A DNA stretch of 64,000 nt, taken from a virus. Every line of letters begins with the position of its first letter. The stretch's first letter is position 1. The stretch lies in the UHGV virus genome UHGV-0125199; one strand, given 5' to 3'. A program made the position numbers and the translations under genes. The notes under the pieces are model-generated. The model did not search any database. It was not told where the DNA came from and was given only the letters and a program-made list of their open reading frames with translations. Shown here one piece after another: positions 11 through 43,702 of the stretch.

Positions 11-982
11 GTGATGGTTAAATATGCCGAAATTTGTTATAGAGATTTTCCAACCATTGTTAATGATCTCAAAGAAAGCGGAATCACATACAAGAATACA
101 TTATTAGAATATGCACGTATGGATAATAAATTTTCTAAATCCAGAATTGGCATTGGCTATTCCAGTAATCTTGCACAATTAGCCTTGACTTATTATTGGA
201 CAGAGTTGCAAAAGGATAATCCTAATGAAGAACGATTGCATGAGTTATATGATAATTTTGTGATTTTATCTGTTCTTGCTCAAGTTATAATTGATGGATG
301 TAAAAGGGAATACGAAATTGATGGAATGAAAGAAATCGACAGGATCAGCAAAATGCCATGTATGAAATTAACAAAGCAAGTAGTTGATGAAAACGGTAGA
401 ATTAAAAGTGTTAAATTTGATTTTCCGAAGTTTATGAAATATACAAGAGCTATAAAAACAACAAAAAACGGGAAAGAAATTCCACAAAAGGAAATACACG
501 AAAAAAAAGTGAAATTGAAAAATAGAATCAACCCATCTCTTGTTTGCCCTATGAATTGGTTAGAGGAATGCTTAGACACTATCAAACCTGCGGCAAATTC
601 ACACTCAACCCCTATTAGTGATTTTTTTATAAAAATGCCTGGCAAACCTAATAACAGACAAATGACAAAAATTAGGAGTCTTATTGAAGAATATGACTTA
701 TTTGTTAAAAATTTACATATAACAAATGACGATGACGATATAATAATCGAAGAAATGATTTCTAAATCCGAAAAATTATTAGACAGCCTATGCAAAATTA
801 AAGTTGGAAATATAGTAACTATAAATAGAATGATAGAGGTGGCTCTAGGTCTCGATAAAGGAATCGGAAATGGATCCAAAACGAAGAACATAAACTTAAA
901 ATATTCAAGAAAAATTTTAAATTATTTACACAAAATGGACAAAGATAAATTTTTATTGAATTTTAAACCAAAACAAATTTAG
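11..982 (+). CDS. hypothetical protein (323 aa); start probably the ATG at 14
   Basis: Long ORF, the only one in this stretch, at the window edge just after a TAA. No motif I recognise. Confidence 0.5.
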   Translation: MMVKYAEICYRDFPTIVNDLKESGITYKNTLLEYARMDNKFSKSRIGIGYSSNLAQLALTYYWTELQKDNPNEERLHELYDNFVILSVLAQVIIDGCKREYEIDGMKEIDRISKMPCMKLTKQVVDENGRIKSVKFDFPKFMKYTRAIKTTKNGKEIPQKEIHEKKVKLKNRINPSLVCPMNWLEECLDTIKPAANSHSTPISDFFIKMPGKPNNRQMTKIRSLIEEYDLFVKNLHITNDDDDIIIEEMISKSEKLLDSLCKIKVGNIVTINRMIEVALGLDKGIGNGSKTKNINLKYSRKILNYLHKMDKDKFLLNFKPKQI

Positions 983-1190
983 TGTTTATGCACAAAAATT
1001 GCCGAATTATTTTGTCAAAAGTTACTAAACCCCTTGTAAATAGTGGGTTTTCAAGAAATCAACTTCGTCCGTAATATGGAAGGATGAGAGTTTTGCTTAT
1101 ATTCAAAATTCTTGAGATGAAATCAAGACTCTTAAGACGACAAACGCTATTGCCAAAGCGTTTAATAAATATGGAGATATATCTATAATA

Positions 1191-1220
1191 AAGCCCCTAT
1201 TGAAAGGGGCTTGGGCTTTG
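1191..1220 (+). terminator. hairpin AAGCCCCT..AGGGGCTT after ORF 11..982
   Basis: 8-bp GC-rich inverted repeat directly downstream of the stop, but only a weak U-tract. Confidence 0.35.
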
Positions 1221-1925
1221 CCCAATATAAGCACTTGCTTATAAATACAAATAACTCAGTGCAGATTGGCTTGTCACCATGCTGAGAATATATGAATAGT
1301 GAGTTGCGGTATAATACGATAGTTTTATACTGCAGCTTCTGGAATGATGTGAATCATAAACAGAAAGACGGAAACCGTCAAAACTAAATATATGTACAAT
1401 AATATATTGCCGTAAAACGCAATTGCCAGATCGCTGACATAATAGACGACTCCAGTGGAGTAATAATCGTGATGCCTGTATCGGTGGAATGTTACAGAGA
1501 GATAAGTAGCGAAAATCCAAATAAGTCAGTTGCGTCGTTGATCGGAAGAAATTCCAGTATAAGATCTGTCGAATGTACGAGTAGCCCAAAGTGACGTGAG
1601 ATTAATACATAAAGAACAAAAAAATTAAATCTTATTATGAATTTTCTTAATACGCTGAATGACATGGGTGAAAGTTTCTCGTAATCAGTCGAGGCTACAA
1701 TTGCTGTTTATCAGATGTAAAGGAAGTCTAAGGGTAGCTCCCTTATTCTCAGCCCTTTACAAGTAGTGGCGGAATATTATGACGATATATTTGAGTAGGA
1801 AGAAGTTCCATTTGTATTTATAATCAAGTGCTTATGCGCGCACTTGACGATTTCTAATCTCCTTTTCAGTTAGTAATAGCATTGCTGTTCTGGTAGTGCT
1901 GTTGCTAACATCTTAGGAGTATTTT

Positions 1926-1997
1926 AGCCCCATCGCCAAGCGGTAAGGCACAGGACTTTGACTCCTGCATTCAGTAGTTCGAATCTACTTGGGGCTG
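1926..1997 (+). tRNA. tRNA-Gln (anticodon TTG)
   Basis: Manual fold. Acceptor AGCCCCA/TGGGGCT (7 bp), anticodon stem CAGGA/TCCTG with loop CTTTGAC, T-arm AGTAG-TTCGAAT-CTACT, discriminator G, 72 nt. Confidence 0.85.
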
Positions 1998-2181
1998 CTA
2001 TCATCCGAAGTGTTGCGCTGACCGTCAATCAGTGGCGCATAAAAACCTATCCCAGTATAAATCCAGGTGACACTGGCTTATATGAAGATACGCTCTAGGT
2101 TTACTACGTTTTATATAACTATTCACATAACAATTATTTTGTCGTCCTTGTGGATGGGTGTTTTGGACGAGCAAACAATAA

Positions 2182-2272
2182 GCTGCATTAATCCTCTGTG
2201 GTAAGGGGTCGATCTTGAAAAATCGATAGTAGCCACTTATGCGGTGTCTAAGTTCAAATCTTAGGTGCAGCG
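2182..2272 (+). tRNA. type II tRNA, most likely tRNA-Ser (TGA); apparent 8-nt anticodon loop
   Basis: Acceptor GCTGCAT/GTGCAGC (one G-U pair). Anticodon stem TCGAT/ATCGA with loop CTTGAAAA. About 21-nt variable arm. T-arm CTAAG-TTCAAAT-CTTAG. 91 nt. Confidence 0.65.
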
Positions 2273-2278
2273 TTATAT

Positions 2279-2351
2279 GCAGGCGAGTGGAACGGATTAC
2301 TACGTCAGACCCATAATCTGAAAATACTGGGTTCGACTCCCAGGCTCTGCA
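2279..2351 (+). tRNA. tRNA-like with CAT anticodon (Met or Ile2); imperfect acceptor and D-arm, possibly degenerate
   Basis: Perfect anticodon arm TCAGA-CCCATAA-TCTGA and T-arm CTGGG-TTCGACT-CCCAG at canonical spacing (T54/T55/C56). Acceptor pairs only 5 of 7, and the D-stem is weak. Confidence 0.45.
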
Positions 2352-2628
2352 ATACTCTCCCACTGTGGAGAAATATACAACGAAAGGAATGTTTTATCAT
2401 AGTTCTTATTACAGACAAAGAATGTAAATTTTTGTTAATCAAAGGATGGAAATGGAGAGATCATATTCATCGCACTGTATCCGGAGCAAACAAAAAATAT
2501 GCAACAGAAAATTATCGATTGATGCAAGATTTAGAAAATTTTAGATCACAGTCGATTAAAGAAACAATTCAGATTAAAAAACGTAAAAAATAACTAGAAT
2601 TAAACTAGAGGAAAGGTGGTTCACCTTA

Positions 2629-3876
2629 TTGGAATGCACATTATTCCTTGATACGAATGCATTACTTAGTCTCGGCGAAAATGCATTTAAAGAAAAATTT
2701 ATTATTGCACAAAAGACACTTGAAGAGATCGAGAATATCAAAGTGTCTAATTCTAAAGATGGAGAAGTAAAATACAAAGCCAGACAAATTTCAAGACTAT
2801 TGGATAAACATGATGGCGAATATGATGTGGTTTTATACTCTCCAAAAATTAAAGAAATAATTGATAGTTATTTCTTATCTGAAACGCCAGACAACATTAT
2901 CTTGGCTTCTGCTTATTATTACAATTCAAATGTATCGGAAGTACTTGTATGTTCTGATGATTTAAATTGCAAATTCATATCTCGTAATATTTTTGGACTT
3001 CCTACAAAGGGAGTTTCGGATATTAACCTTGTCAAAAATCTTGACGAATATCTTGGATATAAAGAATTAACATTGTCTGATGAAGAAATGAGTTACTTCT
3101 ATTGTCATACAAATGAAAACATTTATGATTGTATTTTGAACGAATATCTCATTATTAAAAAATCAGATGGAGAAGTTGTTGATTATAGAAAGTGGGACGG
3201 TTTTGAATATAAAGCTGTATGTGAAAAAACAGTTCGCTCTACTATTTTTGGAGATAAAATTAGACCGAAAGATTCATATCAAGCCTGTGCTATTGATTCA
3301 ATTTTTTCAAATACAATGACAGCTATTACCGGACATGCAGGTAGCGGGAAATCATTGATATCACTAATATCTATGATGAGTCTTATTGAAAATGGAGAAT
3401 ATGATAGAGTGATCATTATGTTTAACCCTAATAAAGCAAAGGGTGCTGCAGATATGGGTTTCTATTGTGGTAATGCTACTGAAAAGGCACTTCAAAATTC
3501 TATAGGTTCCATGTTAACTACAAAATTTGGTGATAGATTTGCTGTTGAAATGTTGTTGCAGCAAGATAAAATTCGATTAGTATCTATGGCAGATGTACGA
3601 GGAATGGAAGTAAGGGATAATGAAATTTTATACATTAGTGAAGCGCAGAATACATCAATCGAATTATTAAAGTTGTGTTTATCAAGAGCAAGTAGCGGAT
3701 GTAAAATTGTTATCGAAGGTGATTATGATAGCCAGGTTGATTCTTATTTATTTGAAGGAAATTCAAATGGTTTTAAACGCGCAATTGATGTGCTTCAAGG
3801 TGAATCAGAATTTGGATATGTACATCTTCCGAATGTTTGGAGAAGTAAAATTGCAATGTTAGTGGATAAATTATAG
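2629..3876 (+). CDS. PIN-domain plus PhoH-like ATPase (YlaK/PhoH2-like)
   Basis: TTG start after GGAGGAAAGGTGG. N-terminus 'LDTNALL' is PIN-like. Walker A 'TGHAGSGKSLI' is typical of the PhoH family. Confidence 0.7.
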   Translation: MECTLFLDTNALLSLGENAFKEKFIIAQKTLEEIENIKVSNSKDGEVKYKARQISRLLDKHDGEYDVVLYSPKIKEIIDSYFLSETPDNIILASAYYYNSNVSEVLVCSDDLNCKFISRNIFGLPTKGVSDINLVKNLDEYLGYKELTLSDEEMSYFYCHTNENIYDCILNEYLIIKKSDGEVVDYRKWDGFEYKAVCEKTVRSTIFGDKIRPKDSYQACAIDSIFSNTMTAITGHAGSGKSLISLISMMSLIENGEYDRVIIMFNPNKAKGAADMGFYCGNATEKALQNSIGSMLTTKFGDRFAVEMLLQQDKIRLVSMADVRGMEVRDNEILYISEAQNTSIELLKLCLSRASSGCKIVIEGDYDSQVDSYLFEGNSNGFKRAIDVLQGESEFGYVHLPNVWRSKIAMLVDKL

Positions 3877-9021: not shown

Positions 9022-9050
9022 GGAGAGCTGTGCTGCTCTCCTATTTTTGT
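9022..9050 (+). terminator. rho-independent terminator
   Basis: GGAGAGC-tgtgct-GCTCTCC hairpin followed by TATTTTTGTATTT. Confidence 0.7.
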
Positions 9051-9054
9051 ATTT

Positions 9055-9126
9055 GGCTCCATGGTCAAGAGGCTAAGACATCGCCCCTTCACGGAGGTAA
9101 CACTGGTTCAATTCCAGTTGGAGTCA
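9055..9126 (+). tRNA. tRNA-Glu (TTC), with a C at position 33 and a G/A mismatch in the anticodon stem
   Basis: Acceptor GGCTCCA/TGGAGTC. T-arm ACTGG-TTCAATT-CCAGT. Anticodon arm TCGCC-CCTTCAC-GGAGG. Confidence 0.6.
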
Positions 9127-9203
9127 TTATTATATTCCGGCTTTCAAAAGAAATGCCGGTTTCATATCGGCAGAAAATAGAAAAAAGAAAGCGAGGGAAA
9201 ATA

Positions 9204-10121
9204 ATGGTAACATTACAGAAAATTGGTGGTGACATGAATCGTAATGTATTAGAGATTACTGGATTATCTACAGACGAAAAACCTGTTGAATTTATCGAAA
9301 CAACATACATTACCAATGGAAGCACATATGAAGAAATTGATACTGGTACAGTGTATAAATATAACGAATCTGGCAAGAAATGGATAGAGCAACCTGCAAT
9401 TGGTGGTTCAGGCGGAAATATTTCTCTTGATTATACTGCATTAACAAATAAGCCACAAATTTCCGGAATTGAATTAACTGGAAATAAAACCTTGGATGAT
9501 CTTGGTATTCAGAAAAAAGGTACTTATATTACAAAAGAAACTGATCCAACTGTACCGGCATGGGCGAAAACTGAAGCAAAACCGACATATACCGCAGACG
9601 AAGTTGGAGCCTTACCAAAAACTACGACTACACTTCCAAATCCTAAAAAGATTAAATTTACAGGTGCAGTAACAGATGAGTATGACGGTTCTGTCGAAAA
9701 AACAATTAACATTCCGACAGGAAGTTCTTATACTCTTCCACAGGCAACTGATCAGGTTCTTGGTGGTGTGAAAGCAAAAGCAAAGACAAACGAAACCGTA
9801 GAAGTTGCAATTGATACTACAACAGGCAAATTATTCGTCCCGGCTTATCCAACTGGTGCAGGAGCTGAACTTGACAAAACACTTGCTGTGGAAGGAAAAG
9901 CTGCGGATGCAAAAGCTGTTGGAGATGCATTGAAAACTAAGATTGGATCCGATGCTCTTGCACCATATATGAAGACAGTTGATGCAGATAAAAAGTATGC
10001 ATTAAAAACTGAATTACCACAAAAGGGAGTTGCTGTCGCAGACGCTGGAGATGCAGATGTCAAAGATAAATTAAATGCTTTGTTGGCAAGTCTCAGAACT
10101 GCTGGGATTATTGCTCAGTAA
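9204..10121 (+). CDS. structural (fibre-like) protein with a 'LGGVK' motif and a C-terminal 'L.ALLASLRTAGIIAQ' tail
   Basis: ATG 7 nt after GCGAGGGAAA. The ORF-track extension back to 9030 overlaps the tRNA and is rejected. C-terminus is paralogous to ORF 23411. Confidence 0.55.
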   Translation: MVTLQKIGGDMNRNVLEITGLSTDEKPVEFIETTYITNGSTYEEIDTGTVYKYNESGKKWIEQPAIGGSGGNISLDYTALTNKPQISGIELTGNKTLDDLGIQKKGTYITKETDPTVPAWAKTEAKPTYTADEVGALPKTTTTLPNPKKIKFTGAVTDEYDGSVEKTINIPTGSSYTLPQATDQVLGGVKAKAKTNETVEVAIDTTTGKLFVPAYPTGAGAELDKTLAVEGKAADAKAVGDALKTKIGSDALAPYMKTVDADKKYALKTELPQKGVAVADAGDADVKDKLNALLASLRTAGIIAQ

Positions 10122-10161: not shown

Positions 10162-10231
10162 GCTTGGATAGTTTAATGGAAAACGATTGACTTGTAATCA
10201 ATTGTTCCCAGTTCAAATCTGGGTCTGAGCT
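10162..10231 (+). tRNA. tRNA-Thr (TGT)
   Basis: Acceptor GCTTGGA/TCTGAGC (2 G-U pairs). Anticodon arm ATTGA-CTTGTAA-TCAAT. T-arm CCCAG-TTCAAAT-CTGGG. Confidence 0.65.
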
Positions 10232-10272: not shown

Positions 10273-11313
10273 TTGTCAGAAGAAAAATCAACAAGAAGTC
10301 TAACGATAACAACACCAAAAGACACGACCTCTGTTAAAAAAATACGATATTCCAAAACAGATGAACCAGATTTTTATAAATGTACAGTTTGTGGGACACC
10401 GTATAAAAACTTAGATGGCAATTTTCCTGCATCTCAAAGCGAATTATACTCTGGATGGGATTATCATATTTCAACATGTAGAAAATGTCTTGACAGATTG
10501 TTTGAACATTATACCGAAGCTTATGGTGGAGATGAAGATATGGCAATACGTATAATTTGTCAAAAATATGATATTTATTACGATGTAAGCCTATTAAACG
10601 CAAGTAGAAAAATTACAAAAACAAGATCTCGAATCCATAATTACATTTCGAAATCTAACTTACGACAGTATGCGGGAAAAACTTTTGATACAACATTAGA
10701 TGAAGAAAGAAAGGGCAATGTAATTGAAAACATTGATGATTTAAAAGAAAATAAATCAAAAATAAGAATAAAGACTGTAAAATTTTGGGGAACAGGTTTT
10801 ACAGATGATGACTATGATTATTTGCAAGAGCAATATGACGATTGGACAAGTCGTCATGAGTGTAAAACTAAAACACAAGAAGAAGTATTTAAAAGAATTT
10901 GTTTCAAACAGCTAGAGATACTAAAAACCACTCGTGCAGGAAAAGATACAAAAGAACTTGATAAAACATTTCAAAATTATCTTGATACAGCTAATCTAAA
11001 ACCATGTCAGAACACGAATGCATTATCAGATGCACAAACTCTTGGAACGTTAATCCAAAAATGGGAAAATGAAAAACCTCTTCCGGATATTGATCCAGAA
11101 TTAGAAGACGTAGATAAAATTGGATTATATATCGATGTATTTTTCAAAGGTCATTTAGCAAAAATGATGGGATTAAAAAATGGATTATCTAATTTGTATA
11201 ATAAATTTATGAAAAAATATACCGTTGAAAAACCAGAATATAAAGATGACGAAAATAATGAAGCACTTTTTGATGCTATTTTCGGAAATGATGAGAAATT
11301 TGAGGATTTTTAA
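10273..11313 (+). CDS. hypothetical zinc-ribbon protein; small-terminase role possible only from its position
   Basis: TTG start after AAGAAGGGA. 'CTVCGTPYK…CRKCLDRL' zinc ribbon. Lies immediately upstream of the terminase large subunit. Confidence 0.5.
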   Translation: MSEEKSTRSLTITTPKDTTSVKKIRYSKTDEPDFYKCTVCGTPYKNLDGNFPASQSELYSGWDYHISTCRKCLDRLFEHYTEAYGGDEDMAIRIICQKYDIYYDVSLLNASRKITKTRSRIHNYISKSNLRQYAGKTFDTTLDEERKGNVIENIDDLKENKSKIRIKTVKFWGTGFTDDDYDYLQEQYDDWTSRHECKTKTQEEVFKRICFKQLEILKTTRAGKDTKELDKTFQNYLDTANLKPCQNTNALSDAQTLGTLIQKWENEKPLPDIDPELEDVDKIGLYIDVFFKGHLAKMMGLKNGLSNLYNKFMKKYTVEKPEYKDDENNEALFDAIFGNDEKFEDF

Positions 11314-11538
11314 ATGGCTACATTGAGAAAAATGACAGAACAAGAAGTTGCAAATGAGAAAGCAGAAAGGTTAATGAACGGTATTGCTTATTGGGCAGCT
11401 TTTTACAGAAAAAACCCACAACGTTTTTGTAAAGATTATTTAAATATAACTCTCAAATTATTCCAAAAGATATTGCTATATGCAATGATGTGCAATAATT
11501 ATTTTATGTATATTGCCTCTCGTGGACAGGGTTTGTAA
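11314..11538 (+). CDS. terL: terminase large subunit, exon 1 (functional exon probably ends at 11532, after '…ASRGQG')
   Basis: '[23 protein letters not shown]' is the N-terminal P-loop region of terminase ATPases. The stop comes 2 codons after GQG. Confidence 0.8.
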
Positions 11539-12563
11539 AAATATCACGAGTGGAGGAAATAACAAATGAGTAAATATGTTTACAATAAAGATTATTTCGA
11601 AAAAATTAACACATCAGAAAAAGCATATTGGCTAGGTTTTTTATATGCAGATGGATGTATTACAAGATTTTATAAGGGAGAAGTATTAAAATCTATGTCT
11701 TTAGAAATTACTTTAAAAGACGCAGATTGTGAACATCTTATTAAATTTAAAAACGCTTTAGAAAGTAATATTCCTATTCAACATAGAATTATTACCGGGA
11801 AATATAAAGCAGATAGAATAGTTGTTAATTGCACAAAAATATGTAATGATTTAATCAAATTAGGTTGTACTCCGACTAAAAGTCTAACATTAGAATTTCC
11901 TATAAAAGATATAATACCTCAAGATTTTATAAGAGACTTTATTAGAGGTTATTTTGATGGAGATGGTGGTGTATCTTATACTGAAGGTAAATATTATAAT
12001 AATGCTAGAAAAAAATATTACAAACAGCATCACTATCGATGCTATTTTTGTGGAAACATACAATTTTTAACTGAATTAAAAAAAATATTGAATTCTAATG
12101 GAATTAAAACATCTGATCTAAAAAAAGACAATAGAAGTAATGCAATTAATATTTATATATATGGAAGAGAAAATATAGAGAAATTTAAAAATTATATATA
12201 TACAGAGGGGTGTGTGAACTTATCAAGAAAATTTGATAAGTTCTTTTTTATTTCCCACAATAGCGATCTTCATATAAATAGATAACGCCATGTTTAGCCC
12301 TGTCTAAATTGGGGAAAATCGGTGAAGACTAAATTTATTTAAAATATAAAATAAATATGTTAATACCGAGATAACTTAATAGATTTCGTAAGGCTATTAA
12401 GCATTGTAGAGAGTAGAGATTGAATAAATATAATATCTCCAAGAGTCCCCAACTACATTATTGTAGAAAATGTACTCCAAGCTGAGTTGGAAATGACCAA
12501 CTGATGAAAATGAAGGAAACTTCCAGAGCATAGGATAAAAAACCTATGGTTAATAACATACTG
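11533..12563 (+). mobile_element. group I intron in terL
   Basis: Last exon nucleotide is U (11532) and last intron nucleotide is G (12563). R-like 'GAAGACTAAAT' and S-like 'AAGAGTCC' elements lie downstream of the HE ORF. Splicing gives GQG|KTWLTALF. Confidence 0.65.
11566..12285 (+). CDS. LAGLIDADG homing endonuclease (two motifs), intron-encoded
   Basis: 'LGFLYADGCI' and 'FIRGYFDGDGGV'. ATG 7 nt after GGAGGAAATAAC. Confidence 0.85.
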   Translation: MSKYVYNKDYFEKINTSEKAYWLGFLYADGCITRFYKGEVLKSMSLEITLKDADCEHLIKFKNALESNIPIQHRIITGKYKADRIVVNCTKICNDLIKLGCTPTKSLTLEFPIKDIIPQDFIRDFIRGYFDGDGGVSYTEGKYYNNARKKYYKQHHYRCYFCGNIQFLTELKKILNSNGIKTSDLKKDNRSNAINIYIYGRENIEKFKNYIYTEGCVNLSRKFDKFFFISHNSDLHINR

Positions 12564-14096
12564 AAAACATGGCTTACTGCTCTATTCTGCGTCGTTCGTT
12601 GCATATTATTCCCAGGAAGCAAGATATGCATTGCTTCTTCAACAAGACCACAAGCGAATCAAGTCCTTTTGAAAATAACCGATGATTTTTGTAAAAACTA
12701 TGGATGGGGTTCAGATAATTTGAATAATGAAATAGGGTACAAATCAGTTGGTGCGAATAATGCGGTGATTGAATTTAAAAATGGGTCATGGATAAGAGTT
12801 GTAACTGCATCTGACAGTGGACGAGGCGCACGTGCAAATATTCTAATTGTAGACGAATTTCGTATGGTTGATTTAAATGTTATTAATACTGTTCTTAGAA
12901 AATTCTTAACAGCTCCGCGCACCCCAGGATATTTAAATATAAAAAAATATTCTCATCTAACTGAGCGTAATAAAGAAATATTTATGTCCAGCGCATGGTA
13001 TAAATCTCATTGGTCATTTGAAAAAGCGAAAGCATATGTCGTGAATTTTTTAGATAATAGTAAAAAATATTTTATTTGCGGACTACCGTATCAAATAGCA
13101 ATCAAAGAAAATTTATTATCAAAAGAACAGGTTGAAGATGAATTTTCTGAGCAAGACTTTGATCAAACATCTTTTGATATGGAGATGGGATGTTTATGGT
13201 TTGGTGATACGGACGGTTCGTTTTTTACATTTGATGATTTATCTAAATGTAGAAAAATAAAAACACCGATGGAGACACATTTTTTCAAAAATAAAAAAAT
13301 ACCAGACTTAGCCCTTAATGAAAAAAGAATTATGTCTGTAGATATTGCATTAATGGGTTCTAGTAAATCAAAGAATAATGATGCAAGTTCAATTTTAATT
13401 AATAGTGCTCTTCCAACAGAAAGCAATGAGTACATTTCAAATATTGTATTCTTAGAAAATCATGAAGGACTTACAACTGACGAATTAGGAATTATTGTCA
13501 TGAGATTGTTCTATAGGTATAAATGTACAGATTTGGTAATCGATACAAATGGAGCCGGTTTAGGTGTATATGATTTTATTATAAAGAATCAGTTAGATCA
13601 AGAAACAGGTGATGTGTATAAAGCTCTTACTTGTTGTAATGATAAAGACATGGCAGAAAGATGTAAAGTCGAATCGGCAAATCCATGTATATGGTCGATA
13701 AAAGCCAATGCTGCTTTTAATAACGAGATGTGTGTTATGCTTCGTGCAGGAATACAAAATGGGAAGATCAATCTTCTTGTATCAGAATTTGAAGCAGAGG
13801 AAATATTAAGAGACAAGATTAAGTCATATTCAAAGATGCAATCTTTTGAACAATTAAAATATAAAACACCATATATTCAAACAACATTGCTGATATATGA
13901 ACTCATAAATTTACAGCATAAGATAGAAGGAACAAACATTAAAATAAAGGAAAAATCTGGTATGAGAAAAGATAGATATAGTTCTTTGGGATATAATTAT
14001 CACATATTAAGAACATTAGAAAAAAATCTTAACACAGATTCTTATTCTTCAGATTTTTCAAATTTTACCCCATGTATTTCTTCTATATCATTTTAG
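12546..14096 (+). CDS. terL: terminase large subunit, exon 2 (true exon start about 12564; the ATG at 12546 lies inside the intron)
   Basis: 'KTWLTALF…ILIVDEF' gives the rest of Walker A and the Walker B motif, followed by the nuclease domain. Frame is open from 12534 after a TAG. Confidence 0.85.
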   Translation: MVNNILKTWLTALFCVVRCILFPGSKICIASSTRPQANQVLLKITDDFCKNYGWGSDNLNNEIGYKSVGANNAVIEFKNGSWIRVVTASDSGRGARANILIVDEFRMVDLNVINTVLRKFLTAPRTPGYLNIKKYSHLTERNKEIFMSSAWYKSHWSFEKAKAYVVNFLDNSKKYFICGLPYQIAIKENLLSKEQVEDEFSEQDFDQTSFDMEMGCLWFGDTDGSFFTFDDLSKCRKIKTPMETHFFKNKKIPDLALNEKRIMSVDIALMGSSKSKNNDASSILINSALPTESNEYISNIVFLENHEGLTTDELGIIVMRLFYRYKCTDLVIDTNGAGLGVYDFIIKNQLDQETGDVYKALTCCNDKDMAERCKVESANPCIWSIKANAAFNNEMCVMLRAGIQNGKINLLVSEFEAEEILRDKIKSYSKMQSFEQLKYKTPYIQTTLLIYELINLQHKIEGTNIKIKEKSGMRKDRYSSLGYNYHILRTLEKNLNTDSYSSDFSNFTPCISSISF

Positions 14097-14111
14097 AAAG
14101 GACGGTGAATA

Positions 14112-15797
14112 ATGTCAGATAATATTAACGAATCACAAGTTGATGACATTAAAAACTATAAAATATCTTTCGCATCAGATATTAAAGACAGCATCAGTTC
14201 TGACGATGAAACCGTCATTGTATCAGGATTTGATGTTCAGCTATCAGAACAAGAGACAAATTGGATGCGCGACGCATTGCAGAGATTTGACAAAGGTGGA
14301 AGTCAATATTCTGTTGTGTTAAACGAAGAATCATCATCCGGAACAGCAAAAACCACAACATTAGATGATATTGATGATTTAGCTTTTAACGCGCAAAGTG
14401 ATATTTCAAAAATACAAAAAATAAATGCATTAGTACGGCAAGCATCAAATGAAGATGATATAATTGGAAAAGTTCATGAGGCTGTTGAATCAAACCTTAA
14501 TTCTAACGTAAGAATATCTTTTGATACACTCCCATCAGACTATGACGAAGGAATAAAACTCGAAGCAGAATCAGAAATTGAACGTTTTCACAAAGAGATA
14601 AATGTAAATGACATCGTAACTATTGCAATTACTACAACATATGATGAAGGTAATTGTATACAATACTTGAGATCAAAAAAATCTAAAGGTATTTATCATC
14701 ATGTTGTTGATAGATATCCATTAGGAGTTGCTTTAATAAGCGACTATTCTATGAACACAATTCCTTACGTGTTGATTGACACATCCGAGCTAACAAACAG
14801 ACTGCAGAAAACAATGCTAAAAAGCAAAAAGAATAAACCTTTATTTTTCAAAAATACTGCAGAAGAGATCAAAAATAATTATCCAAAAGAAGTTACGAAA
14901 GCTTACACATCGAAAGAAAAATACGCCATTCTTGATGTTCAAAGGACTGGAGTAAATCGATTTGGCAATATGAATCGTAAATATGGAATTTCGCCAGTTT
15001 TTAAAGCGTTGAAGCCTAAAATTATGCTTGATACATTTGATAAAACAGACAATGTTAATGCTAAAGCAAAGGCAAAAAAAATAATTGCCCAATATCTAAA
15101 AAAAGAAGTTTTAGGACAGCGTGGCGAAAAAAAAGGACTTGAGGATATGGCATATGCCCATGATTGCCTTGTACAGGCTTTTAAAAATAAAACTGTGCTG
15201 TATACTCCACCAGGCAGCGTTGAAAAGATTGAGTATGTAGAACCAAAAGTAGAAATGACTAATACAGAAACGATTACACAATATAGGTCTAGGGTTACAT
15301 CTGCATTAGGCATATCATTTTTGAACACTGACGGAAAACAAACTGTAAGCACAGCAAATATTTCTATTAAACAACTCATGAAAACAATTAACAAAATTGC
15401 AGAAAGACAGGAAAAAATTTTGCAACGTTGGTATGAAGTTGTCTTATCTGAAGCAGGTATACCAATAGAGTATTGCCCTACTCCACATATTTTAGATTCA
15501 GAAATGTTAGAGTTTGAAATCAAAAAGGATCTTGTAGAATTCCTATTTTCAAAACTCAATTGCTCATATCAAACAGCGTATGAATTTCTTGGCATGGATT
15601 TTGATAATGAGGTTGTTCGTAGAAAATCCGAAAAAGAGAATGGTTATGATTTAATACTGACTCCTCATCCAACTTCTTACAATACATCTGGCTCAGATGA
15701 AATTGGTGCAGGTCGACCAATGGGAGGAACAAACGAGGATAATGATGTGAATGAGAAAAAACAGGAATATGATAAAAATTATCGAGAATCTAAATAG
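14112..15797 (+). CDS. putative portal protein, judged from position and size
   Basis: 561-aa ORF directly after terL, ATG after AAAGGACGGTGA. No motif recognised. Confidence 0.4.
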   Translation: MSDNINESQVDDIKNYKISFASDIKDSISSDDETVIVSGFDVQLSEQETNWMRDALQRFDKGGSQYSVVLNEESSSGTAKTTTLDDIDDLAFNAQSDISKIQKINALVRQASNEDDIIGKVHEAVESNLNSNVRISFDTLPSDYDEGIKLEAESEIERFHKEINVNDIVTIAITTTYDEGNCIQYLRSKKSKGIYHHVVDRYPLGVALISDYSMNTIPYVLIDTSELTNRLQKTMLKSKKNKPLFFKNTAEEIKNNYPKEVTKAYTSKEKYAILDVQRTGVNRFGNMNRKYGISPVFKALKPKIMLDTFDKTDNVNAKAKAKKIIAQYLKKEVLGQRGEKKGLEDMAYAHDCLVQAFKNKTVLYTPPGSVEKIEYVEPKVEMTNTETITQYRSRVTSALGISFLNTDGKQTVSTANISIKQLMKTINKIAERQEKILQRWYEVVLSEAGIPIEYCPTPHILDSEMLEFEIKKDLVEFLFSKLNCSYQTAYEFLGMDFDNEVVRRKSEKENGYDLILTPHPTSYNTSGSDEIGAGRPMGGTNEDNDVNEKKQEYDKNYRESK

Positions 15798-42330: not shown

Positions 42331-43702
42331 CTCAACAGTCTTCGGATAGAAACCATAAAAAACAGATAGGTCAGGGATAACCGGGTGTGCAAGTCACCCA
42401 GACGCAACGAACTTCCTAAGTCATATATGATTTATGATATGGAAGACGCTCAACGACTGGTAAGTCCTATATATTATAATATGTAGGCATAGGGTTACAA
42501 GCGATTGGTAACTCGAAAAATATAGACTATTTGAATAAGAAATGAAATGAACAATTAAATATGATATATGTTATAATTAAGATACATCTATGATGCACTT
42601 ATGAATACAAGAACGTATGTTTTGTATATATTTAACAATTGTAAACATATCACTTTGTTTGTATTTTGTGTAGAATTTTCTCCGTATATGGGATATAATA
42701 ATAACAAGAAAACAGCAGTGTTTTCTTAAATATATCTGGTGTGATGCAGCGTAATATGACTGCTATAAATAATCTTTGAAGTGTACGCCGGGTTAGGAAC
42801 CGGTTTACATGGAGATTTACAAAGGTGCGAGGATTTACCATAGCCTAACTAGGAACTATGTTCTGAAAGAAAGTCCTTGAATGAATAGAAGGGTCATCAC
42901 CAGTGACTCTTCTATTTTTATACCAAGGAGAAGTTATGGATAATATATCATTGGCACTAAATAATTTCAAAGAATTGATGAATTGCAATTATGATTTTAT
43001 AATAGTTTGTAATAAGCAAAAATCAGATATAAAACTTACATTTGAATCAAAAGATTTTTATCATTTAGTAGGGTTTCAATACTTAAAAGATATAGACATC
43101 CCTAAAAATGAAAAACAGTTATTTAAAAAAATAGAATCTCTTAAGATTACTGATGAGTATTTAGGCAAAAGTGTGTTTTATACAAAAGTGGATTACAGCT
43201 ATGCAAATGTAAAAGAACGAATTTCCGGATTTAAAGATGTTGATAAATTTATAGAAAACAAAAATATTATATGTAGATATATAAAAACTAATAACCCTTC
43301 ATCGGCTATAAAAGCGGATTATTTAATAAAAAGTACTTTATATAACAGAACGGCATATATGTTTTTGAGAAAAAGAAGCAAAGGAGATGAATATTGTATG
43401 TGTTCATTTTTTATGCAACCACAAAATGAATATATAGGTCAAAAAACATATTGGTTGTATAAAGCCAAAAAACGTATATCGGACAATTATGTTAAAATAT
43501 TGTTAGATAGAATATCGGAATCCACAGAGCAGTAACAGGTAATACTACTGCTCTTTTATTATGTCCAAAATCATTTCAAAAAAAATTCCAAATTATTCAA
43601 ATAGAAGGTATAGTCTCAACTTCTGAGGATAACTCAGAGAAGTTCATAAGAGAACTGCATAGCGTAGCGAACTATGTGAAGATAATTGAAATAATGCGAG
43701 TG
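42209..43702 (+). mobile_element. third intervening sequence in the tape-measure gene (intron-like; boundaries within about 25 nt)
   Basis: The coiled-coil reading frame resumes at 43690 with no start or RBS. GCTCAG is shared at both exon edges. Structured RNA-like flanks. An internal hairpin plus T6 at 42884..42918. Internal ORF. Confidence 0.5.
42936..43535 (+). CDS. intron-encoded protein of unknown family (candidate novel homing endonuclease or defence protein)
   Basis: ATG after AAGGAGAAGTT. No LAGLIDADG, GIY-YIG, HNH or EDxHD motif recognised. Confidence 0.55.
   Translation: MDNISLALNNFKELMNCNYDFIIVCNKQKSDIKLTFESKDFYHLVGFQYLKDIDIPKNEKQLFKKIESLKITDEYLGKSVFYTKVDYSYANVKERISGFKDVDKFIENKNIICRYIKTNNPSSAIKADYLIKSTLYNRTAYMFLRKRSKGDEYCMCSFFMQPQNEYIGQKTYWLYKAKKRISDNYVKILLDRISESTEQ

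Follow-up and report, generated by a model that had tools for sequence, protein, structure and literature searches.

The interrupted terminase gene and its intron-less allele

The DNA analysed here (the window) is a 64-kb stretch from a virus. At the locus under study, a gene caller yields an endonuclease flanked by a 74-aa orphan and a 516-aa 'terminase', whereas the real product, if the predicted splicing takes place, is one 583-aa large terminase subunit (TerL) with an intact P-loop. The elements of the interrupted gene are:

11314–11532, plus strand: exon 1 of TerL (YonF-like), 73 codons; from the ORF list, colinear with uninterrupted homologues
11533–12563, plus strand: group I intron, 1031 nt; absent from the intron-less allele in L003/L004
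11536–11538, plus strand: stop codon (UAA) closing the exon-1 frame at the second codon of the intron; from the sequence
12546–12548, plus strand: ATG, apparent start of the 516-aa 'terminase' ORF; in the exon-2 frame and within the 3' strand of helix P9.2
12563, plus strand: terminal G (omega-G) and 3' splice site; from the junction against the intron-less allele
12564–14096, plus strand: exon 2 of TerL, 510 codons plus stop; from the ORF list and the homologue alignment

A preliminary description of this DNA had proposed these exon, intron and ORF coordinates, and all of them were confirmed in the sequence. Exon 1 ends with the residues ...YIASRGQG, as described, and U11532 is its last base and the 5' splice site. 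The frame was said to run from there straight into a stop, but the ORF at 11314–11538 carries one more codon past GQG, TTG (Leu, 11533–11535), and the stop comes two codons later. Judging by what is known for phage introns, this UAA would release ribosomes ahead of the intron. Exon 2 begins with KTWLTALF and contains the Walker B motif ILIVDEF; its frame is open from 12534, following a TAG at 12531–12533, and reads KTWLTALF...DEF as previously noted. The ATG at 12546 does lie inside the intron, in the P9.2 hairpin, and because of this placement it is predicted to be a false start. The CCUAUG that includes it is also kept in family introns residing in unrelated genes.

Joining U11532 to A12564 gives a 583-aa terminase whose junction reads GGU|AAA ACA (...SRGQG|KTWLTALF; predicted spliced sequence ...GGACAGGGU|AAAACAUGG...), which restores the Walker A motif SRGQGKT anticipated in the preliminary description. 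The Pfam Terminase_6N score rises from 18.1 bits unspliced, under the cut-off of 22, to 29.3 bits spliced, and the match then begins at profile position 1. The spliced product shows no gap at the junction against any of the 10 aligned uninterrupted homologues, the nearest of which (P0001) is likewise 583 aa long and 97% identical. To the SPbeta/phi3T yonF 'terminase' the spliced product is 46–47% identical across 94% of its own length, and the genes adjoining terL are YonG-like and YonD-like. With full-length TerL homology, and with Walker A (after splicing) and Walker B in an N-terminal ATPase, the homologues and neighbours identify the interrupted gene, at the level of sequence, as a large terminase of the SPbeta YonF type.

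The boundaries are fixed by an allele that lacks the insert. In L003/L004 the site reads GGC|AAAACC, whereas the window has GGT and AAAACA separated by 1031 nt, so the insert is exactly 11533–12563 and separates the Gly codon from the Lys codon in the Walker A motif GQG|KT. The L003 sequence at the intron-less site is CTCGTGGGCAGGGCAAAACCTGGCTGAC. Overall, the exons of the two alleles are 91.4% identical, with 151 nucleotide differences and 15 amino acid differences in 583. The intron is thus polymorphic for presence and absence, and it occurs in five other viral contigs at 99.7–99.9% identity. The six assemblies with the intron are phage contigs of 33–166 kb; these independent assemblies agree fully in the ribozyme part and in both exon flanks and differ only in the ORF.

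The ligated-junction 25-mer GTGGACAGGGTAAAACATGGCTTAC, a proxy for spliced RNA or for an isogenic intron-less allele with the window allele's flanks, had 0 matches in metagenome contigs and 0 in viral contigs. A search with nhmmer and the family profile found no intron copy within the 64-kb window other than this one. At the junction, stretches of 60 nt carry 8–9 substitutions relative to the intron-less allele, where the mean is ∼5; this gives no convincing signal of co-conversion, because the first 60 nt of the gene carry 12.

Guide pairing and core structure

The part of the intron that follows the ORF contains an internal guide sequence at 12288–12304, starting three bases past the endonuclease stop codon, and a structured core. 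The pairing elements are:

12288–12295, plus strand: P10 strand of the guide, CCAUGUUU; exact complement of exon-2 12565–12572 (AAACAUGG)
12297–12304, plus strand: P1 strand of the guide, GCCCUGUC; pairs with exon-1 11525–11532 (GACAGGGU) over 8 bp
12309–12452, plus strand: P3 (12309–12314 with 12447–12452), enclosing P4, P5 and P6; covariation on alignment A3
12319–12324/12364–12369 (P4), 12327–12329/12359–12361 (P5) and 12375–12382/12394–12401 (P6), plus strand; covariation on alignment A3
12411–12477, plus strand: P7 (GAGUA 12411–12415 with UACUC 12473–12477), forming a pseudoknot with P3; covariation
12416–12420/12435–12439 (P7.1, with a conserved UGAAUAAAUAUAAU loop) and 12453–12456/12463–12466 (P8), plus strand, both enclosed by P7; covariation
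12486–12548, plus strand: peripheral 3' domain P9, P9.1 and P9.2; identity to phage introns and covariation
12486–12490/12497–12501 (P9), 12512–12515/12520–12523 (P9.1, with a GAAA tetraloop) and 12529–12534/12543–12548 (P9.2), plus strand

The P1 strand, whose match is unique in the intron, ends the 5' exon in a U11532.G12297 wobble pair at the splice site, and P10 pairs 8 bp with nucleotides 2–9 of exon 2, a complement that occurs once in the intron. Together P1 and P10 form 16 contiguous pairs, matched by 1 of 2000 intron shuffles; because this pairing comes with a junction colinear in 10/10 homologues, the agreement is far more than chance would give. The group I rule invoked earlier, that the 5' exon ends in U and the intron in G, holds here with U11532 and G12563, and the P1/P10 guide places both sites exactly. 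In the 15 aligned family introns a G stands at or beside the aligned 3' end, the true terminal G being placed tentatively by the continuity of the downstream ORF. The exon-1 codon at the 5' splice site is GGU in the allele with the intron and GGC in the one that lacks it. Counting against a group I reading, P1 must form over a 764-nt loop (11533–12296). Because the guide lies downstream of the ORF and pairs with the end of exon 1, the endonuclease ORF is in the P1 loop; therefore the ribozyme core is wholly 3' of the ORF.

Outside the ORF, the intron consists of 33 nt before it and 278 nt after it. The latter fold as a group I core comprising P3–P9.2, with a P3/P7 pseudoknot and an IA-type P7.1, in the helix order P3-P4-P5-P6-P7-P7.1-P3'-P8-P7'-P9, which is the group I (IA) topology. 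Over 15 family introns the P3–P9.2 structure, hand-written and derived from the same 15 sequences on which its pairs were counted, is 95.3% paired, compared with 31–45% in slid controls. Compensatory changes support 34 of its 52 pairs, and none of 500 shuffles attains any of these measures; topology and covariation together bear out the group I assignment of the preliminary description. On alignment A3, both-side changes affect 5 of 6 pairs in P3, 6 of 9 in P4 and P5 (counted as one helix) and 7 of 8 in P6; the covarying pairs are 4/5 in P7.1, 4/4 in P8 and 5/6 in P9.2. P7 is 100% paired in the 15 introns and appears in three compensatory versions (GCGUA/UACGC, GCAUA/UAUGC and GAGUA/UACUC), while the loop of P9.1 is invariably GNRA. 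The window copy has all of its helices intact. P4–P6 were recovered in both the minimum free energy (MFE) and the centroid folds, and the MFE z-score is -2.99.

Between P7 and P3' the window has one covarying hairpin, P7.1, in whose loop a second is nested in some family members. This extension is the single feature by which the architecture is classed, provisionally, as subgroup IA-like. The IA2 type named in the preliminary description, marked by P7.1 and P7.2 between P7 and P3' together with a subgroup-specific P7 signature, is a candidate assignment. The R/S-like sequences are similar to the group I consensus of Rfam (AGAGAGUA/UACUC in the window, AGACUA/UAGUC in the consensus).

The covariance-model check suggested in the preliminary description came out negative. 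Rfam scans returned no group I match at E<=1 over 10500–15000, nor at E<=10 over 12270–12620, and only chance sub-threshold snoRNA or sRNA matches. RF00028 also found no match in the related introns of phage AR9 and of a Clostridium phage (see below). This negative is weak and uninformative, because the same model misses T4 nrdB and scores T4 td at 40.3 bits, below its gathering score of 50.

The intron-encoded endonuclease and the proposed homing cycle

The loop of P1 holds a complete gene:

11552–11556, plus strand: Shine-Dalgarno sequence GGAGG, 9 nt ahead of the ATG of the endonuclease ORF; from the sequence
11566–12285, plus strand: LAGLIDADG homing endonuclease ORF, 239 aa, in the P1 loop; from Pfam and PHROG

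Pfam LAGLIDADG_3 matches residues 120–211 of the 239-aa ORF (45.5 bits, cut-off 22.5; 9.4e-12), and PHROG 4645 'endonuclease' matches at 1.6e-49, in agreement with the earlier assignment. The ORF has the form of a two-motif monomeric enzyme: motif 1 is WLGFLYADG (residues 22–30) and motif 2 IRGYFDGDG (126–134), ∼100 aa apart, and the aspartates D29 and D133 are both present. In Pfam, significance is reached only by the C-terminal LAGLIDADG domain, the N-terminal domain having E = 0.2. Partial NCBIfam matches, all far under their cut-offs, are to long archaeal replication and translation proteins and probably reflect intein endonuclease domains. A sequence search of the PDB with the endonuclease gave no real match, only a spurious ribosomal protein at E = 0.9. 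Homologues of the endonuclease occur in phage introns. Single-A insertions frameshift the ORF in 3 of the 5 other intron copies; the endonuclease may be decaying, or the insertions may be homopolymer sequencing errors. The candidate cleavage target is the L003/L004 sequence CTCGTGGGCAGGGC|AAAACCTGGCTGAC.

These results are best explained by a mobile group I intron of subgroup-IA architecture (11533–12563) that interrupts terL at GQG|KT and carries a LAGLIDADG endonuclease, a reading to which we assign a probability of about 0.92. Splicing of the terL pre-mRNA, catalysis, and the activity and target of the endonuclease are all predicted from sequence. In the proposed mechanism, the guide would form P1 with the final 8 nt of exon 1, placing the U11532.G12297 pair where cleavage would occur, and P10 with exon-2 nucleotides 2–9, and the core P3–P9.2 (12309–12548) would fold round the P3/P7 pseudoknot. 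The first step would be an attack by exogenous guanosine just past U11532; in the second, the 3'-OH released on exon 1 would attack after G12563, giving ligated exons and an mRNA for the intact 583-aa TerL. The 239-aa endonuclease would be made from the P1 loop via its own GGAGG ribosome-binding site and would probably cleave terL alleles lacking the intron, around ...GGGCAGGGC|AAAACCTGG.... With the intron-bearing copy as repair template, the intron would then spread (homing), during co-infection or in prophage-phage encounters.

Three other explanations were weighed. The terminase might be two natural polypeptides (74 aa and ∼516 aa), made without splicing from a gene that a free-standing homing endonuclease gene has divided, as nrdA reportedly has been by mobE in Aeromonas phage Aeh1. 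The in-frame ATG at 12546 would suit this arrangement, and separate CDSs are annotated at such loci (two 'terminase large subunit' entries in Clostridium phage vB_CpeS-1181, hypothetical proteins in Mammaliicoccus phage phi127). However, a break inside the P-loop at GQG|KT would leave neither fragment with a complete Walker A motif, all close homologues are single chains, and the ATG with its preceding sequence is the conserved hairpin P9.2 that recurs in unrelated genes. A free-standing gene needs neither a covarying group I fold nor a guide complementary to both exon ends, and we give this explanation a very slim chance.

An insertion of group I origin that has lost efficient splicing, either in a terL pseudogene of a defective prophage or in wholly protein-dependent form (cofactor or maturase), has a slim chance. 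Splicing is here a prediction, the core is unrecognised by Rfam, and three related contigs have a frameshift in the endonuclease ORF. Against this, variation among the six independent assemblies is confined to that ORF, leaving ribozyme and exon flanks unchanged, the window copy has lost no helix, and the exon frame is open and conserved, as the 15 amino acid against 151 nucleotide differences indicate. Nothing beyond the bare interruption speaks for some other element, and such an origin is scarcely credible. A group II intron is rejected for want of a reverse transcriptase and because the 33 nt and 278 nt outside the ORF are too short for a group II ribozyme; an intein, by the exon-frame stop two codons past the junction; translational bypassing, by a length of 1031 nt, far beyond any known case; and an assembly chimera, by five other assemblies that have this insert at this site.

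Relatives of the intron and consequences for annotation

The mobile group I intron in the window has relatives in other phages. Its P9–P9.2 domain is 96% identical to a stretch of Bacillus phage AR9 and 82% identical to the terL insert of Clostridium phage vB_CpeS-1181. The AR9 stretch lies within the three-piece join of a topoisomerase II (GyrA-like) CDS, BI022_gp044, and we read it as an intron. The AR9/PBS1 gyrA and vB_CpeS-1181 terL introns belong to the same family as that of the window, the whole core being alignable with compensatory changes. The AR9/PBS1 intron occupies a different gene and site (GyrA ...IIG|EYHPHG), and AR9 intron 1 is without a long ORF. In vB_CpeS-1181 the intron sits at the terL Walker B motif (IIAD|DYQ), a different site from that of the window, and its ORF (259 aa, unrelated, no Pfam match) occupies the P5 loop instead of L1. 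The core shared by these introns also occurs in other genes at about 50 more viral loci; by these alignments, it appears to be part of a large family of introns from Firmicutes phages.

The closest match in position is found in the Mammaliicoccus phages phi127 (PV389080) and phi116 (PV389079), which are interrupted at the same codon boundary (ASRGLG|KSF, compared with ASRGQG|KTW in the window). The phi127 intron has a related core and, directly past the 5' splice site, a homologous LAGLIDADG ORF (30% identity, E = 1e-21). It differs in that its terminase is only 36% identical, its ORF is longer (294 aa) and its P9/P9.1 region is reduced. In both records the intron is unannotated and the pieces are listed as hypothetical proteins.

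Terminases have been named among the typical targets of introns (PMC3984707), and terL group I introns with homing endonuclease genes are known in Bastillevirinae Bacillus phages (PMC11878797). Like the window intron, the latter are IA-like, lie inside terL at a conserved catalytic motif and carry their ORF in a peripheral loop; interruption of the covariance-model match by the ORF has likewise been reported for them (PMC11878797). The window terminase is of a different lineage from those hosts (SPbeta YonF-type, from a metagenome phage or prophage), and the terL introns tabulated there encode a VSR-domain nuclease (PHROG 559, 'HNH endonuclease'), in contrast to the LAGLIDADG enzyme in L1 of the window. 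The T4 td, nrdB and nrdD introns (IA2) would share with the window intron their mechanism and a subgroup-IA-like layout in which an insertion of the P7.1/P7.2 type separates P7 from P3'; they likewise have an in-frame stop shortly past the 5' splice site. In the T4 introns the enzymes are of the GIY-YIG or HNH type and are encoded in P6a or P9 loops, unlike the LAGLIDADG gene in L1, and sequence divergence is too great for the Rfam model to connect them with the window intron.

There is about an even chance that the window intron represents a large, IA-like family of Firmicutes phages, largely missed by models, that is spreading over unrelated genes, apparently favouring nucleotide-binding-loop codons and swapping endonuclease genes between loops. 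Insertion sites in such loops include G|KT (window and phi127), RG|QGKT and |LGKS (other YonF-type terminases) and |FGKST and |GKTT (other ATPases). Endonuclease placement ranges from LAGLIDADG in L1 (window) to the unrelated ORF in L5 (vB_CpeS-1181), and Rfam gave no match on the 3/3 family members tested. If such a family exists, many terminase, gyrase, polymerase and tape-measure genes now annotated as 'split' or 'truncated' in phages and metagenomes would be intact.

The window intron is a real but ordinary kind of phage parasite, one more homing element aimed at the most conserved codons of an essential phage gene, and it changes no concept. Its main value lies in annotation. The family escapes Rfam and is unannotated in deposited genomes (phi127/phi116 and vB_CpeS-1181), and a covariance model built from alignment A3 would repair many split phage genes. 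The natural intron-plus/intron-minus allele pair, at 91% identity, also offers a system for studying homing in SPbeta-like gut-metagenome phages.

The interrupted terminase gene and its intron-less allele

Reading of the ORFs at 11314-14096 confirmed the interrupted large terminase (TerL) gene of the preliminary description. The exon-1 ORF starts at ATG 11314 and ends as claimed, but the stop does not follow directly: after GQG, one TTG codon (Leu) precedes TAA (11536-11538). The terminase frame has a TAG at 12531-12533, is open from 12534 to 14096 and reads KTWLTALF...ILIVDEF, as previously noted. Joining U11532 to A12564 gives GGU^AAA ACA, or SRGQG^KT (^ marks the junction). The joined 583-aa product passes the Pfam cut-off for Terminase_6N and matches from profile position 1; the 516-aa ORF by itself falls below it.

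Relatives of the joined protein number in the thousands, and the best 120 listed are single chains of 579-601 aa. The uninterrupted terminase P0001 is 97% identical to it and exactly 583 aa long. Alignment of the spliced product with terminase homologues, proposed as a check in the preliminary description, was performed for 10 sequences, and a 26-residue stretch across the junction was colinear with no gap there. By tblastn, the joined protein is 46-47% identical over 94% of its length to the yonF terminase found in SPbeta, phi3T and their relatives. The P0001 gene has YonG-like and YonD-like neighbours and therefore belongs to an SPbeta-like phage or prophage.

Two contigs, L003 and L004, carry an intron-less allele reading ...CGTGGGCAGGGC^AAAACCTGGCTG..., where the window reads ...CGTGGACAGGGT[1031 nt]AAAACATGGCTT...; the insert is therefore 11533-12563. 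The exons of the two alleles share 91.4% DNA identity, and 15 of 583 residues differ. An insert shifted by one base (11532-12562) encodes the same protein; it is excluded by the RNA structure, in which guide pairing points to U11532 and G12563.

Guide sequence and catalytic core

A bipartite guide, CCAUGUUU-A-GCCCUGUC, is located at 12288-12304, right after the endonuclease stop codon. GCCCUGUC is complementary to the final eight exon-1 bases, GACAGGGU, placing G12297 opposite U11532 as the canonical U.G pair of the 5' splice site, and CCAUGUUU is perfectly complementary to exon-2 bases 12565-12572. Neither 8-mer recurs elsewhere in the intron, and 1 of 2000 shuffles gave a bipartite guide with 16 contiguous pairs, even with wobble pairs allowed. 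By this pairing, the reactive positions are U11532 and G12563, in line with the earlier appeal to a 5' exon ending in U and an intron ending in G. The pairing also places the endonuclease ORF within the P1 loop (11533-12296, 764 nt), with the entire catalytic core on its 3' side. No P2 is present in the window intron; by eye, some relatives also pass from P1 to P3, with a short P1 loop (e.g., the relative L016, AUGGGU^UAAGCAUAUAGCCCAU), and others have a P2 hairpin.

The structure of the window copy was derived from an alignment of the intron family and then mapped onto window coordinates.

Core helices of the window intron, from the family alignment (paired segments, strand, helix)
12309-12314 / 12447-12452, +, P3
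12319-12324 / 12364-12369, +, P4
12327-12329 / 12359-12361, +, P5
12375-12382 / 12394-12401, +, P6
12411-12415 / 12473-12477, +, P7
12416-12420 / 12435-12439, +, P7.1
12453-12456 / 12463-12466, +, P8
12486-12490 / 12497-12501, +, P9
12512-12515 / 12520-12523, +, P9.1 (GAAA loop)
12529-12534 / 12543-12548, +, P9.2

In this model, the helix order, the P3 x P7 pseudoknot and the extra hairpin between P7 and P3' form a group I layout of subgroup IA; the modelled features are IA-type only, IA2 being the suggestion of the preliminary description. Across 15 distinct family members, 95.3% of cells are standard pairs, against 31-45% after sliding the 3' partners by 1-3 columns. Both sides have changed in 34 of 52 pairs, and no shuffle out of 500 reaches any of these measures. 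The same sequences also gave the structure, a minor concern in view of how large the contrast is and how many double changes there are. Three compensatory versions of P7 occur, all fully paired: GCGUA/UACGC, GCAUA/UAUGC and, in the window, GAGUA/UACUC. Thermodynamic folding of 12286-12563 alone recovered P4-P6, P8, P9, P9.1, P9.2 and part of P7.1 (z = -2.99). The stretches AGAGAGUA ... AAAAUGUACUCC flanking and forming P7 are similar to the Rfam consensus R and S elements (aAGACUA ... AAGAUAUAGUC), with the middle pair flipped.

A group I covariance model had also been proposed as a check, and the Rfam model gave no match at E<=1 over 10500-15000, nor at E<=10 when the 3' part of the insert was scanned alone. 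This negative is given little weight because the model also gave no match on the related introns of Bacillus phage AR9 and the Clostridium phage and, as RF00028 on phage T4 (NC_000866; 5956-7720 and 11236-13113), missed the nrdB intron entirely and gave the td intron 40.3 bits, short of the gathering score of 50. The T4 result is a warning for any intron screen built on RF00028. A study of Bastillevirinae introns reports the same problem where the core is split by an endonuclease loop (PMC11878797).

The boundaries, the guide and the covarying fold support the earlier interpretation of a group I intron interrupting the terminase. We estimate a probability of about 0.92 that the insert is a self-splicing group I intron whose predicted removal restores the TerL Walker A loop. 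Little supports a terminase naturally made in two pieces, which would leave the break within the P-loop, the guide complementary to both exons and the covarying ribozyme fold without explanation. Nor does much speak for a dead intron, which is hard to square with an invariant core and constrained exons in six assemblies. An intein, a group II intron, translational bypass and an assembly artefact are each ruled out by simple sequence features. In a self-splicing intron, the in-frame stop at 11536-11538 would keep ribosomes out of the ribozyme; such an early stop is a known phage-intron arrangement shielding the ribozyme from ribosomes.

The endonuclease ORF and intron mobility

The 239-aa ORF of the insert (11566-12285) has its own GGAGG ribosome-binding site. 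As previously described, it belongs to a LAGLIDADG endonuclease family, matching Pfam LAGLIDADG_3 (45.5 bits, cut-off 22.5) and PHROGs endonuclease family 4645 (1.6e-49). Both motifs are present, with aspartates D29 and D133 ~104 residues apart, a spacing as in monomeric LAGLIDADG enzymes. In the phage collection, relatives of the ORF carry the annotation 'mobile intron protein' or 'endonuclease'; examples come from the Bacillus phage 0305phi8-36 DNA polymerase gene and from crAss-like phages.

The intron is found in five more viral contigs (L007, L019, L025, L056 and L058; 99.7-99.9% identity) and is absent from L003 and L004. Among the six copies, every difference falls inside the ORF, and the ribozyme is invariant. 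All five other copies share T11903A (Ile113 to Lys). In L019, L025 and L058, single-A insertions in A-runs (after 11599, 11856 and 12119) frameshift the ORF and may be homopolymer sequencing errors or early endonuclease decay. The endonuclease probably drives homing into intron-less alleles, with both its activity and its target predicted.

Group I introns in phage terminase genes, at conserved catalytic codons and with ORFs in peripheral loops, are established (PMC3984707, PMC11878797). GIY-YIG, HNH, PD-(D/E)xK and EDxHD endonucleases predominate in phage introns (PMC3984707), LAGLIDADG being less usual, though documented and plentiful among the ORF relatives in the phage collection. Mildly new are a widespread intron family with no Rfam match on the three members tested, its lack of annotation in several deposited genomes and its repeated occurrence at P-loop codons.

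Related introns and other RNA features

By megablast, 12362-12558 is 82% identical to DNA that directly precedes the second CDS labelled 'terminase large subunit' in Clostridium phage vB_CpeS-1181, and 12481-12557 is 96% identical to a stretch within the AR9/PBS1 topoisomerase II (GyrA-like) CDS, a three-piece join. A 17-mer from the 3' region recovered 62 viral loci, ~50 of which have the same element before quite different coding sequences. Judged by eye alone, the downstream ORFs resemble several terminases, GyrA, a DnaE-like polymerase, an NrdD-like protein, tape-measure proteins and other P-loop ATPases.

Family introns in terminases of named phages
L067 (PV389080), 241-3215: terL intron of Mammaliicoccus phage phi127 (phi116 likewise), G^K Walker A boundary, 294-aa LAGLIDADG ORF
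L001 (MW478292), 1510-2710: terL insert of vB_CpeS-1181, annotated as two terL CDSs, same intron family

The phi127/phi116 terminase is only 36% identical to the window TerL and has a related intron at exactly the same codon boundary, ASRGLG^KSF. The ORF directly follows the 5' splice site and is homologous to the window ORF (30% identity, E = 1e-21). The phi127 record labels the pieces hypothetical proteins and 'endonuclease', not intron; in the sister phage phi6255 the gene is uninterrupted. The vB_CpeS-1181 insert apparently occupies the Walker B site (IIAD^DYQ), and its 259-aa ORF, with no Pfam match, is in the P5 loop, not L1.

In two IMG/VR contigs with YonF-type terminases, family introns appear six bases upstream of the window's site, with exon 2 starting QGKTWLT (L055) and LGKSFLV (L063). 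Others appear directly before KTF, FGKST and GKTT (L024, L054 and L064). Judging from these sites and the boundary common to the window and phi127, P-loop codons look like a recurrent landing site. In the AR9 GyrA-like gene (L002, ~3170-3550), the 5' half of the second intron is near-identical to that of the first (...GGGGGATTAAGCTGGRAGGGT...CCTGATCAGAGTCCGAAGGAT...), which suggests two copies of one intron family.

Other RNA features of the window
1231-1828, +: ROOL RNA, strong match (RF03087, 340.9 bits, gathering score 99.1)
9054-9127, +: tRNA-Glu(ttc)
10162-10231, +: tRNA-Thr(tgt)
42771-42881, +: drum RNA (RF02958, 66.3 bits, gathering score 43)

ROOL is a large structured RNA; its match adjoins a tRNA gene (Gln, 1926-1998) and a weak, Rfam-only tRNA (2279-2351). 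The drum RNA is directly upstream of the ORF at 42903-43535. The Glu and Thr tRNAs are directly upstream of the packaging genes; the mechanical ORF 9030-10121 begins inside tRNA-Glu, and its true start is therefore farther downstream.
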